Shown: positions 43,544-49,246 of the stretch, piece by piece
Layout of the letters: every line of letters begins with the position of its first letter
Position numbering within the stretch: the first letter of the stretch is position 1
DNA from: Candidatus Thorarchaeota archaeon
GTDB lineage: Archaea; Asgardarchaeota; Thorarchaeia; Thorarchaeales; Thorarchaeaceae
Reading direction: 5' to 3'
NCBI GenBank assembly: GCA_048882045.1
Contig: JBHLRZ010000003.1
Coordinates: 96,001-160,000, forward strand
Length of the DNA stretch: 64,000 nt
Notes under the pieces: model-generated
Seen by the model: only the letters and a program-made list of their open reading frames with translations
Database searches by the model: none
What the model was told of the DNA's origin: nothing
Made by a program: the position numbers and the translations under genes

Positions 43544-43792
43544 CTAAGGATATCTTCCTCTTGGGAGGACATTCATTGCTTTTTCTGCAGCATGCGGATT
43601 TATTGCATAAAGAACGATTATGATAAGAACCGTCACTGCGAAGTATGTGATGATTAGTCCGGAAGCTGGTGCTTCGAAGAAGGTTCTAAGAAGGTAGAGC
43701 AAAATTAACAGTCCAATCTGAGTGATGCAGAGGAATGTTTCAAACTGCTTCCTCATTCCAGTCCCAGGTTGTCGCTTTTTCGTTTTTGGCAC
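43544..43792 (-). CDS. small two-TM membrane protein
   Basis: basic N-terminus plus two hydrophobic helices; 10 nt downstream of the peptidase gene. Confidence 0.65.
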   Translation of the reverse strand: MPKTKKRQPGTGMRKQFETFLCITQIGLLILLYLLRTFFEAPASGLIITYFAVTVLIIIVLYAINPHAAEKAMNVLPRGRYP

Positions 43793-43802
43793 GATCTGCC
43801 TG

Positions 43803-45122
43803 TCACAACCACTCGAATGCTTTATTCCATGTTACACTTGAACCTGAATAAGGATTCATGTAGACCGTTCTAAAGAATTCAGGGACAACATCCTTCTCAA
43901 TGGCCTTGAGAAATGAGGGATAGACATAGTTTGTGCGTCCGACATAGTATGTGAAGATGTAAGGTGCGAAGAAATTCGTCTTTCCATCCTTTGTTCGAGG
44001 ACCTATGAAAGCGAGAGATGCTTCAGCAGTTTCACGTGTCCTAAATGTTCTCTCACAGATGTAATCAATCACTTCCTCTTCTGATTTTCCTTCATCATTA
44101 AGAAGGATCGCTGCATTGATTGAAGTCATCCTTCGGACAGGGTACAACGCTTCATATACCGCAACTCGAGATTCTTCTTCAGTAATTCCGAGGAAATCCT
44201 TAGCTGTGTCAGCAGTACCCTCAGATATGACACATCGGCCAGTATGTAGAGGTACTATTGAAAGTTCAAGATTTCCTGAATTCAAGTAGGCTTTCTCTCT
44301 CCACAAGTTAGACACATGGTGTTCATATTCATGATACAAGGTGGCTTGTAGTATGTCCTTGTTGAACTTTCTGTCGATATTGAACTGGTTCAGAGACTTG
44401 AATTCTCCTTTGTACCAGTTATACCCACCCCATGGTTCATCTCTCACAGCTTCATATTCAATCCCATTGTCAGGGACGGAAGCTCCCATTACTGAATAGA
44501 TCTTGGTCCTGAACTCCTGACCGATTTCAGAAGACCGTTGTTGAAGGTCGGTTTCAAGCAATCTTTTGAGAGCATCTCCAGTAACCTCGCCCTCCGTTGT
44601 GTAACGTTCTATCTTTTCGGACAAATCTGCACCTGGATAGTCAGCCATAACCTCAGCCAATTGCTCGTTGCCCTTGTCAATCTCACGCTCAGAAAACTTC
44701 TCCATTGGAATCTGAAAGAGACCCTCCACGAGTTCACCATAAGACATGTCTTTTCCATCCAACCAATCCACCACAACATTCAGCGAATGAAGCTCACCCA
44801 TCATATACTCGAACCGGAGAGGATCATTAATCTCATCCCTCACCATATCAAAGGTCTGCTGGATTTCATAAACAATATCCGAAGATGCTTTGTCTGTGCT
44901 CTGTTTCTTGGGATGGAACTCAGGAGGTCCTGTATACGCATCAACAACACTCACTCCTGTAAGACGTTCTGTAAAATTCCCAACCTCTCCACAGACCTTC
45001 ACGAATCTCTCTGCAGCTTTCATTGTGACCAAGTGAGAAATGCAATGCTGACCTAAAGTGTTTGCCATTTGAGTCGTCACTCTTGGGAGTGTTTCCTTTT
45101 TGGACAGAGTATCGCTGTTCAC
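43803..45122 (-). CDS. HExxH zinc metallopeptidase-like protein (gluzincin/DUF885-like)
   Basis: LYHEYEHH with downstream ISEGTA third-ligand motif; no signal peptide; start may be further inside (45068 or 45023). Confidence 0.7.
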   Translation of the reverse strand: MNSDTLSKKETLPRVTTQMANTLGQHCISHLVTMKAAERFVKVCGEVGNFTERLTGVSVVDAYTGPPEFHPKKQSTDKASSDIVYEIQQTFDMVRDEINDPLRFEYMMGELHSLNVVVDWLDGKDMSYGELVEGLFQIPMEKFSEREIDKGNEQLAEVMADYPGADLSEKIERYTTEGEVTGDALKRLLETDLQQRSSEIGQEFRTKIYSVMGASVPDNGIEYEAVRDEPWGGYNWYKGEFKSLNQFNIDRKFNKDILQATLYHEYEHHVSNLWREKAYLNSGNLELSIVPLHTGRCVISEGTADTAKDFLGITEEESRVAVYEALYPVRRMTSINAAILLNDEGKSEEEVIDYICERTFRTRETAEASLAFIGPRTKDGKTNFFAPYIFTYYVGRTNYVYPSFLKAIEKDVVPEFFRTVYMNPYSGSSVTWNKAFEWL

Positions 45123-45150
45123 AGACTATTGATTCCAAGAGAGAGAAGAT

Positions 45151-47280: not shown

Positions 47281-47304
47281 AGATTGACCCTCTGAACCAG
47301 TACT

Positions 47305-47697
47305 TCAATCTCCACGCTGAGCACGCAAGACATCAGCCTGAGCGATAGTGAGGTTAGATAAGTCAGCCTTAGCTGCAGCCCACTCCACAATATCTGGAAA
47401 CTCCATAATCATCCCACCCCAGACAAGGTGGTAGACTCGCTTCAGTATCACACTTGCATCAGCTTCTTTCCCGACATACTCAAAGAAACATTTCACTACT
47501 GCTGGTGTCTGTTCGCTCATGTCCTTAGGGACTTCAGTCCCAAATCCAGCGAACTCTACATCAAGCTCACGGAAAACGTCCATTCGTTCCCTGATTCCTG
47601 CCGCAATGACTGGGAGGTCCATGTCATAGGCACTGAAATGCATGATGAGTTTTTTCTTGCTAATTGTGCCATATGGTAGTTTGATTTCTGTGCTCAT
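47305..47697 (-). CDS. hypothetical protein, first gene of the CHSA-protein operon
   Basis: about 130-aa ORF ending 24 nt before the CHSA protein start. Confidence 0.75.
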   Translation of the reverse strand: MSTEIKLPYGTISKKKLIMHFSAYDMDLPVIAAGIRERMDVFRELDVEFAGFGTEVPKDMSEQTPAVVKCFFEYVGKEADASVILKRVYHLVWGGMIMEFPDIVEWAAAKADLSNLTIAQADVLRAQRGD

Positions 47698-47815
47698 TCG
47701 ACCACACTCCACGATGATACTGTCAATGAATCAATACTGGGGACTCTTAAAACTTTCAGATTTCCAAACTCATCCATCCGAACCCTTAAGACACCTAAGA
47801 TTGGATTAGCGCTTA

Positions 47816-49246
47816 ATGACCTCAACTCGATCTGTTCCAGAATACAACTATTCATTGGAAGATCTGCACTGGATACCAGCATTCATTGAGGAGGTCAAGG
47901 ACTTCTTCTTTGCAAGACCACAGGACAACCTCCTCATTCTAAGACCAAACAAGACGATGAGCCTGAATGAAACAGCCATGAGAATGTTGAAGAAACTTAT
48001 GGACAAGGAGCCGATTGAGAAGATTGTTGCACACTTCGTGGATGCTGGAGGAGAAGAACAGAAGGTCATCAACGATTTGGCAGCATTTGTAGACGACCTT
48101 CGAAACATGACAATAGGAAACCAGAACATCTACAGCTACAGGACAGCAAAGATAGTCCCCTTCGGAGAGGGTGAGATCAAGTACCCTGTCTTGAGCGAGA
48201 TTGCACTCACCTATCGTTGCAACAACAAGTGTAGATTCTGCTACGCATACTCTCCGTTCCGAGAGTCAGGAGAAATGACAACAGAAGAGGTCAAGCGAGT
48301 CATTGACATCATAGTTGATGATGCACACGTACCAAGTCTTTCCTTCACCGGAGGAGAGCCAACACTGAGAGAAGACCTCTTCGAGCTGATCACTCATGCG
48401 AGAAACAGAGAATTACGAGTCAACCTGATCACCAATGGCATTCGGTGTCATGACAAGGCATTTGTCCAACGACTTGTCGATGCTGGATTGAACAGTGCAC
48501 AGGTTTCAATAGAGGGACCAGATGCAGAAACGCACGACTACATAGTCGGGATTCCTGGAGCCTTTGACAAGACTGTCCAAGGAATCAAGAATCTACGAGA
48601 AACAGACATCTATACACATTGTAACACAACGATATGTCGTCCCAACTTGGACAAGCTCGAAGACCTTGTGGACTTTCATGCTGATGAATTGGGTTTGACA
48701 TACTTCAGCATGAACATGGTCATCTACACAGGTACTGCAGCAAAGTTGAGAGATGAACTCCAGGTGAAGTACTCTGAGATCAGAGAGATCGTCAAACGAG
48801 TAAAGAAACGAGCGAACAAGAAAGGCATTCAGTTTGTCTGGTATGCACCTACTCCTGTCTGTCTATTCAATCCAATCGCTCATGGTCTCGGTGCGAAGAG
48901 TTGTGCTTGCTGTGATGGATTGCTCTCTGTTGATGCAGAAGGGGGCTTATTGCCTTGCTCGAGCTTCAGCGAACCTGTTGGTAACATATTGCACGAGGGT
49001 TTCGAGAAGGTATGGTACAATCGTGCCTCCCAGTTTTGGAGGGCGAAAGACTTTGCGCCAGAAGGGTGCAAAGCTTGTGACCACTTTGACTATTGCTATG
49101 GTGCCTGTCCACTCTATTGGGATGTCCATGGATTTGATGAGATAAAGGAATACTGGCCTAAGAAGAGTAAAGTCAGAGAGAGAATTGATGAAGCCAGATT
49201 GAATCTGAGAAGACGCATCCGAGGAGATCAACACGGCATTACATAA
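47816..49246 (+). CDS. radical SAM/SPASM protein with N-terminal PqqD/RRE-like domain
   Basis: CNNKCRFC (CxxxCxxC), TGGEPT; SPASM CACC..G..LPC...CKAC...CYGACP; N-terminal LLILRPNKTMSLNETA...DLAAFVDDL RRE-like. Confidence 0.93.
   Translation: MTSTRSVPEYNYSLEDLHWIPAFIEEVKDFFFARPQDNLLILRPNKTMSLNETAMRMLKKLMDKEPIEKIVAHFVDAGGEEQKVINDLAAFVDDLRNMTIGNQNIYSYRTAKIVPFGEGEIKYPVLSEIALTYRCNNKCRFCYAYSPFRESGEMTTEEVKRVIDIIVDDAHVPSLSFTGGEPTLREDLFELITHARNRELRVNLITNGIRCHDKAFVQRLVDAGLNSAQVSIEGPDAETHDYIVGIPGAFDKTVQGIKNLRETDIYTHCNTTICRPNLDKLEDLVDFHADELGLTYFSMNMVIYTGTAAKLRDELQVKYSEIREIVKRVKKRANKKGIQFVWYAPTPVCLFNPIAHGLGAKSCACCDGLLSVDAEGGLLPCSSFSEPVGNILHEGFEKVWYNRASQFWRAKDFAPEGCKACDHFDYCYGACPLYWDVHGFDEIKEYWPKKSKVRERIDEARLNLRRRIRGDQHGIT

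Follow-up and report, generated by a model that had tools for sequence, protein, structure and literature searches.

Only a few cases of radical S-adenosylmethionine (SAM) enzymes that cross-link whole proteins have been proven, namely QhpD and CrpC. QhpD forms thioether cross-links within QhpC, a protein that is retained in the mature complex (PMC7876137, PMC11002830). In Methanococcus voltae, the substrate of CrpC (TIGR04463) is also a whole protein, CrpA, whose C-terminal Cys repeats are cross-linked, and the binding of the substrate sulfur by CrpC has been proposed (PMC13692751, 2026). The His triceptide synthases HaaB, HtkB and YhhB act on H-x-A or H-x-K and join the C2 of the His to a Cβ (PMC11499958, PMC11002830). 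The sequence YxxP is a characterised recognition motif of the RRE (RiPP recognition element; RiPP, peptide made by the ribosome and then modified post-translationally) (PMC12710340), and stress phenotypes have been reported for DUF2207 proteins of the SMU.243 type (PMC10457818). In this work we analyzed a stretch of 64,000 nucleotides from a Candidatus Thorarchaeota archaeon (GCA_048882045.1, contig JBHLRZ010000003.1, positions 96,001 to 160,000; hereafter the window), which carries the gene of an RRE-radical SAM-SPASM enzyme close to that of a membrane protein with a Cys/His-rich C-terminal tail. From its sequence and that of its relatives, we conclude that the enzyme probably cross-links this tail as part of the whole membrane protein, with Cys thioethers as the most likely bonds.

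Results

Joint inheritance of the enzyme and the tail protein

The window was re-examined and the five open reading frames (ORFs) of an earlier reading of its letters (the original prediction) were all found at their positions. The two genes of main interest and their parts are the following.

45151..47280, minus strand: 709-amino-acid membrane protein with a single pass, remotely related to DUF2207/TIGR04222, putative substrate (homology, hydropathy)
46090..46164, minus strand: transmembrane helix, about residues 373-397, then a basic YRR patch (hydropathy)
46021..46038, minus strand: YxxPxI motif Y415-I420, putative RRE recognition sequence (conservation in both tail types)
45154..45300, minus strand: 49-residue Cys/His tail C661-R709, putative core (nine H-x-A-C units, seven with a Cys in front)
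47816..49246, plus strand: RRE-radical SAM-SPASM enzyme, 476 amino acids, CHSA subtype, core member (Pfam PqqD, Radical_SAM, SPASM; model; co-occurrence)
47936..48106, plus strand: RRE/PqqD domain, residues 41-97 by Pfam (PF05402; match to PqqD 3g2b; model with three strands and three helices)
48218..48241, plus strand: CxxxCxxC SAM-cluster motif, C135, C139 and C142 (conservation)
48860..49108, plus strand: SPASM region, in which seven Cys are conserved: C349, C363, C381, C418, C421, C427 and C431 (conservation)

By sequence, the enzyme and the membrane protein are a widespread two-gene module of two types, with tails composed of (Cys-Ala)n (CA type) or of (His-x-Ala-Cys)n (CHSA type). Each of the two genes is present in a single copy in the genome. 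Among 38 Thorarchaeota genomes at least 90% complete, both genes are present in 30 and both are missing in 6, and only 2 are discordant; the flanking genes remain in system-less genomes, so that a neighbourhood-wide deletion was rejected as the cause of the co-loss. Outside Thorarchaeota, a radical SAM gene of this clade was found at 36 of the 40 CHSA loci that could be judged and at 61 of 62 bacterial CA loci; its subtype matched that of the tail in every case, in profiles partly built from these same non-Thorarchaeota loci. Four divergent tails that were recovered by a remote search, outside the profiles, each have a CHSA-type enzyme as direct neighbour or with a single gene in between. No radical SAM gene was found beside five tail-less homologues with a poly-Gly end (two Asgard families), and the enzyme clade was not found in four genomes with tail-less homologues, where the best hit (E 1e-34) covers a partial domain, as compared with 8e-119 for the positive control. 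The original prediction had coupled the two genes, and their co-occurrence and synteny, with 36 of the 38 Thorarchaeota genomes in agreement, bear this out: they form a dedicated pair and are co-inherited.

The module is present in 56 of 76 Thorarchaeota sampled, in several other Asgard families and in about 28% of the Anaerolineae sampled. The CA type was first met in an Asgard homologue of the same order that ends in a Cys-Ala repeat followed by GGGR, and therefore the host alone does not dictate the tail type; its family extends to Chloroflexota, Bathyarchaeota and other Asgard groups, and the genomes of Bellilinea and Leptolinea carry this type. The CHSA tail and its enzyme subtype occur also in Ca. 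Asgardarchaeum, Anaerolineae/Chloroflexota, Spirochaetota and other bacteria. The arrangement had been presented as undescribed in Asgard archaea, and indeed no paper on it was found, but it is not specific to these archaea, given that bacteria share both the tail type and the enzyme subtype. In 201 genomes of the class Anaerolineae, 30 have the CHSA type, 27 the CA type and 1 has both, when about 4 with both would be expected under independence, with types called from E-values and with genomes that are related by kinship and thus not independent. That the two types are rarely together suggests that they do the same job. The tree of the enzyme and a quick tree of the cytoplasmic domain without the tail each show one change of tail type (97/98 and 99). 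A hybrid tail, in which a Cys-Ala/GGG end comes after CHSA units, was observed beside a CHSA-type enzyme (P0262, locus L298, GCA_054386635.1).

Conservation and topology of the tail protein

The 709-residue protein has a signal-peptide-like N-terminus, one transmembrane segment, and a tail that contains 11 Cys and 9 His. Given the signal peptide and the single membrane segment with the YRR patch after it, its C-terminus is predicted to be cytoplasmic. No other Cys/His tail of this kind was found in the genome. In 38 Thorarchaeota loci, 43 of the last 47 residues of the tail are invariant, with several synonymous codons at every position, and across 30 relatives the body of the protein is 56-91% identical and the tail hardly changes. 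Judged by per-codon synonymous counts, the tail is under extreme purifying selection at the protein level; the varied synonymous codons under invariant residues rule out DNA slippage or chance as the origin of the repeat. A total of 923 HxxC units were counted in 103 distinct tails. In 900 of 922 units Ala precedes the Cys, and these units thereby carry the H-x-A motif of triceptides (aromatic-X-X3 with His at position 1); in the others this position holds Asn, Asp, Ser or, once, Val.

The label DUF2207-like, proposed previously for this protein, holds as a remote relationship only, since the Pfam gathering score is not reached: the Pfam DUF2207 profiles (PF09972/PF20990) do not match the window protein, a match was obtained for 1-2 of 58 relatives (E about 1e-4), and TIGR04222 matches 16 of 44 cytoplasmic domains. 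In one locus (L009, G018:C156) there are in-frame TAG codons, one in the tail protein just before the tail, three in the peptidase and none in the radical SAM or zinc-ribbon genes; these may reflect read-through, decay or an assembly error.

A candidate docking motif, and an improbable release of the tail

A YxxPx(I/L) motif is located just inside the membrane, 243 residues ahead of the tail. It is conserved in 129 CHSA proteins (Y/W 93%, P 99%, I/L 97%) and in 215 CA proteins (Y 99%, P 93%), and it is absent from both tail-less homologues inspected (n = 2). A tail-less homologue at L304:5980-8067 has a zinc ribbon at the place where the motif would lie. The predicted complex of the RRE (residues 1-125) with the motif segment had a score of 0.42, against 0.00 for the best control, with 48% run/contact agreement and a partner pLDDT (predicted local distance difference test) of 46; scores up to 0.60 are weak, and the mark used for these predictions is reached by 58 of 80 solved pairs and by 2 of 110 mismatched ones. 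The score of this model may stem from its likeness to solved RRE-leader complexes.

The original prediction saw no short precursor, and this was upheld by a genome search, which gave no similar and Cys-rich short ORF, and by clustering of the neighbourhoods, with no conserved one among products of at least 65 amino acids. The absence of a short precursor, the co-inheritance and the YxxP motif indicate that the cytoplasmic tail, as had been suggested, is the likely substrate. The order of leader motif, linker and core is that of RiPP precursors, the linker ahead of the tail is flexible and variable in sequence, and the C-terminus is free, as would suit a true RiPP whose cross-linked tail is cut off by a protease encoded elsewhere to free a small product. 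We consider this distinctly improbable, for no protease or transporter is conserved near the 102 non-Thorarchaeota loci that could be judged, and an M6-like secreted peptidase, which has an N-terminal membrane segment and is probably outward-facing, is present in only 12 of 40 CHSA loci. In addition, a protein of 700 residues for each 49-residue product would be costly, and its extracellular and cytoplasmic domains are both conserved in their own right.

Features of the enzyme

The N-terminal PqqD/RRE-like domain attributed previously to the enzyme was confirmed, and the PF05402, Radical_SAM and SPASM profiles all score above the Pfam cut-off (26.1 bits against 23.4 for PF05402). The CxxxCxxC motif shows no change among 73 CHSA-type and 65 CA-type enzymes, and each of the seven Cys of the SPASM region, one of which sits upstream of the usual SPASM set, is kept in 137-138 of the 138. 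The enzyme therefore has the N-terminal PqqD/RRE domain, the CxxxCxxC motif and the auxiliary-cluster Cys of the RRE-fused radical SAM/SPASM maturases; the short free precursor peptide that is expected near such maturases was not found. Five residues at strand ends (E128, S231, H268, S298 and S382) are present in 73 of 73 CHSA enzymes and in 0-15% of the CA enzymes.

The structural model (pLDDT 91.6) has SkfB, the best, and SuiB as nearest folds. SkfB is also the best sequence match among solved structures (E 3e-27), with the cyclophane synthase ChlB far weaker (E 2e-4). The curated maturase families SkfB, AlbA, StsB and PapB all remain below their cut-offs (108 of 625 bits for StsB, 92 of 340 bits for PapB). 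The runner-up among solved structures is a tetraether lipid synthase, and with a lipid as substrate an anchor in the membrane would make sense; the enzyme could then act on a lipid, on a cofactor or on the 130-residue protein encoded beside it, with the membrane protein serving only as anchor or regulator. This seems very improbable, given that the lipid synthase match corresponds to the generic radical SAM core (85 bits against a Tes cut-off of 450), and that an invariant tail whose type tracks the enzyme subtype would be left unexplained.

Accessory and neighbouring genes

Four other genes of the region were evaluated as members of the system.

47305..47697, minus strand: 130-amino-acid soluble α/β protein, Thorarchaeota-specific accessory, not an RRE (distribution, fold search)
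51269..51979, minus strand: 236-amino-acid protein with two transmembrane segments, winged helix and zinc ribbon, probable accessory, outside the coordinates of the original prediction (profile match, presence pattern)
43803..45023, minus strand: DUF885-like HExxH metallopeptidase, 406 amino acids, neighbour and not member (family similarity, decoupled distribution)
43544..43792, minus strand: 82-amino-acid protein with two transmembrane segments, sporadic neighbour and not member (family f25, 7 of about 40 Thorarchaeota loci)

The enzyme gene had been described as head-to-head, at about 120 bp, with an operon of four tightly spaced genes. The distance to the 130-residue ORF (start ATG at 47697; homologues of 130-131 residues) is 118 bp; the four genes are present and the gaps around the core genes range from 4 to 127 bp, but the largest one precedes the peptidase gene and there the spacing is not tight. 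In Thorarchaeota genomes, the site of the three-gene cassette is a divergent junction and the peptidase is merely downstream.

The 130-residue protein was found in 53 of 76 Thorarchaeota genomes and in no other family, and it is lost together with the pair. It has no Pfam match at E < 1 and only generic α/β matches in the fold search (Z at most 6.4). It was rejected as a stand-alone RRE, and as a piece of the radical SAM enzyme, of the methyltransferase or of the bacterial coiled-coil or zinc-ribbon partners, because none of these profiles matched.

The product of 51269..51979 matches the constant zinc-ribbon neighbour of the bacterial CHSA loci (HHalign 96.9%), and its presence tracks that of the radical SAM gene over 86 Thorarchaeota genomes with four mismatches, with the flanking genes persisting. 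On this pattern it is probably a member, with three caveats: a short zinc-ribbon gene with two transmembrane segments stays at the site in one system-less genus, a homologue lies near a tail-less protein, and the gene is not the best match of the bacterial profile in the genome. In the CHSA loci outside Thorarchaeota, a coiled-coil protein of 400 residues (34 of 40) and the winged-helix zinc-ribbon protein with two transmembrane segments (33 of 40) are frequent; the former (L215:5786-6973 and 33 other loci) comes almost always after the radical SAM gene, and no homologue of it was found in the source genome. The CA loci carry a shorter zinc-ribbon protein (60 of 62) and a methyltransferase (47 of 62). 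In CA-type loci L062-L128, a second radical SAM-like gene without the Cys motif (about 385 residues) and the methyltransferase often follow the enzyme; neither was found near the Thorarchaeota cassette. The cytoplasmic domain of the Asgardarchaeum tail protein at L031:6608-9382 contains a Cys-pair insert similar to a zinc ribbon, and this protein has no zinc-ribbon neighbour besides.

The original prediction also counted the peptidase as a member that releases the modified tail. Its HEYEH..SEG motif was confirmed, with H231, H235 and E268 invariant in 19 homologues; the most likely start is the ATG at 45023, from which the homologues align, 127 bp after the membrane protein gene. A DUF885 match was obtained for 3 of the 19 (best E 2e-4), its Atlas neighbours are named DUF885, and no solved structure related to it by sequence was found. 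This soluble peptidase, with an intact zinc motif, is encoded on the same strand and within 5 kb of the membrane protein gene in most Thorarchaeota loci, which favours its proposed role. However, in 39 such loci the two genes are directly adjacent in 8, separated by other genes in 24, and in 7 the peptidase is outside the fetched locus; at the 102 non-Thorarchaeota loci it was never found. It is missing in three system-bearing Thorarchaeota genomes at least 90% complete and present in three without the system, absent from all 28 genomes of a family with the tail in 25, and present in 3 of 3 of a family in which no tail was found. In genome G098, which lacks the three-gene cassette, a phosphoesterase-peptidase run and the aldolase gene diverge across 79 bp, exactly at the usual site of the cassette. 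On the basis of this decoupled presence, the peptidase was rejected as a member: it is a bystander, and the release of the tail by it, largely refuted on genomic grounds, is scarcely credible. The membership claimed for the small protein with two transmembrane segments was likewise discarded, given its sporadic presence.

Past the enzyme gene, at 49251-51285, a pyridoxal phosphate-dependent aldolase/dehydratase of the alanine racemase fold starts 4 bp after the radical SAM stop codon and is followed by an ARPP-1 domain gene; the first was rejected as a member because it persists in system-less genomes, and the second because it is present in 6 loci only. At 53190-54817 there are two tandem paralogues, similar by sequence to RIO-type kinases, and this pair is conserved in many Thorarchaeota loci. 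A hairpin of 12 pairs followed by a T run, located at 43474-43512 between two convergent genes, that of a CTL-like transporter and the 82-residue one, is likely a terminator.

Discussion

A model for the modification of the tail

We propose that the membrane protein would act as its own precursor. The RRE of the enzyme would grip the YxxPxI motif just inside the membrane, and the folded cytoplasmic domain together with an amphipathic linker would let the tail reach the radical SAM active site, where the enzyme would take H atoms and cross-link the repeats one after another. The tail would most likely stay on the protein as a rigid cytoplasmic module that probably binds a metal or a partner, and the small zinc-ribbon protein with two transmembrane segments, and in Thorarchaeota also the 130-residue protein, would be helpers. 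In its full extent, that is, an internal YxxP that recruits the enzyme, a poly-cross-linked tail 240 residues away that remains attached, two interchangeable types with matched active sites, and possibly a new Cys/His linkage, the chances for and against this model seem to us evenly balanced.

Several observations weigh against a cross-linked tail. The best NCBIfam scores of the enzyme are those of AhbD and NirJ2, of the haem/NirJ type (151 bits against a cut-off of 500), and it reaches the cut-off of no NCBIfam family; for this reason, peptide cross-linking is deduced from the RRE. The CHSA and CA types separate in a single evolutionary step where long branches meet; this does not amount to a statistical test, and therefore the residues that distinguish the subtypes are no proof of co-evolution. 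There are orphan tails in two Thorarchaeota genomes (G254 and G201), and four bacterial tail loci, counted as loci only, have no radical SAM gene within 3.5-7 kb downstream; intact CHSA tails without a nearby radical SAM gene are those of L183 (G254), L274, L275, L277 and L225. In G254 (one contig, 77% complete), no match was found for the enzyme, the 130-residue gene or the zinc-ribbon gene, and the N-terminus of the tail protein is unusual. The motif Tyr is lacking in the Asgardarchaeum form. Finally, Cys/His repeats with H-x-x-C and C-x-x-x-C spacing are well-known metal ligands and could function without modification.

The last point, the AhbD and NirJ2 scores and the zinc-ribbon partner that travels with the system would all be consistent with a membrane sensor or scaffold whose tail is an unmodified site for a metal or cluster (Cu, Zn, Ni or Fe-S) and on whose YxxP the radical SAM enzyme docks to load or exchange a cofactor, in the manner of NirJ, AhbD or HemW. 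We regard this, the main non-covalent rival, as improbable, because the CA and CHSA types seem to replace each other and yet would form very different metal sites, the near-invariant Ala before the Cys would be needless in an array of ligands, and a fused RRE is a feature of enzymes with peptide substrates.

Regarding the chemistry of a cross-linked tail, analogy with known enzymes leans towards thioethers between a Cys and the Ala (or His) in every unit, because both tail types have Cys-x-x-Ala, with the spacing and ring size of the CrpA motif, and because the seven auxiliary Cys leave room for the binding of the substrate sulfur and four residues match StsB. Cyclophanes between His-C2 and Ala-Cβ, although unlikely, would be a real rival because His-x-Ala is the HaaB motif and two of the nine H-x-A-C units have no upstream Cys; any other linkage is quite unlikely.

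If this model is true, cross-linking of whole proteins by radical SAM enzymes would extend to an integral membrane protein that is recognised through an internal sequence, in a module to which RiPP mining for short ORFs is blind. The two tail types with their matched enzymes would be a natural experiment on specificity; the chemistry could be tested in E. coli with soluble constructs, and for native work on the CA type Bellilinea and Leptolinea offer hosts.

Comparison with known systems

In the literature, covering few subscription papers, and in curated families, no description of the pair was found (tail letters, DUF2207, Asgard RiPP/radical SAM). The DUF2207/TIGR04222 proteins such as SMU.243 (PMC10457818) resemble the membrane protein in the remote homology of the cytoplasmic domain and in a low-complexity C-terminus; the Asgard relatives that were checked end in poly-Gly and have neither a Cys tail nor a radical SAM partner. 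The CXXX-repeat system (target TIGR04114, maturase TIGR04115) shares with this locus a Cys at every fourth residue next to a radical SAM gene, but its targets are short free peptides. TIGR04114 matches neither the window protein nor 44 tails, with a faint PF27846 mark on one relative, and TIGR04115 is not among the best 25 NCBIfam matches of the enzyme.

As in the His triceptides, the tail has nine H-x-A units, in which position 3 varies only to Asn, Asp or Ser (once Val); however, triceptide precursors are short and do not require Cys, His is absent from the sister CA-type tails, and no cyclophane-synthase family is among the best 25 NCBIfam matches. Regarding the sactisynthases SkfB, AlbA and StsB, the last with its substrate StsA (PMC10288494), SkfB is the closest to the window enzyme in both sequence and fold, and a motif alignment shows that four of the six catalytic-proximity residues of StsB are shared (Y143, T178, I205 and S231) and that positions 5-6 differ (S382, S383). 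The CxCxC core of StsA resembles a CA-type tail. Nevertheless, these enzymes act on short free peptides, are about 21% identical to that of the window, and none of their cut-offs is reached. QhpD differs in its Asp/Glu acceptors and in its substrate, a small soluble enzyme subunit.

CrpC is, like the window enzyme, an archaeal RRE-radical SAM-SPASM protein with seven SPASM Cys, encoded beside a protein with C-terminal Cys repeats, and the C-X-X-Q/D motif of CrpA is spaced like C-H-S-A. The best 25 of 93 NCBIfam matches of the enzyme do not include TIGR04463, which hence scores under about 82 bits. CrpA has 28.8 kDa, a 17-residue repeat and an N-terminal leader, whereas here the protein has 709 residues and a membrane segment, the motif is internal, and the repeat has four residues with His and Ala. 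Both systems have a large neighbour protein with C-terminal Cys repeats, which in this locus is membrane-bound and carries a different repeat.

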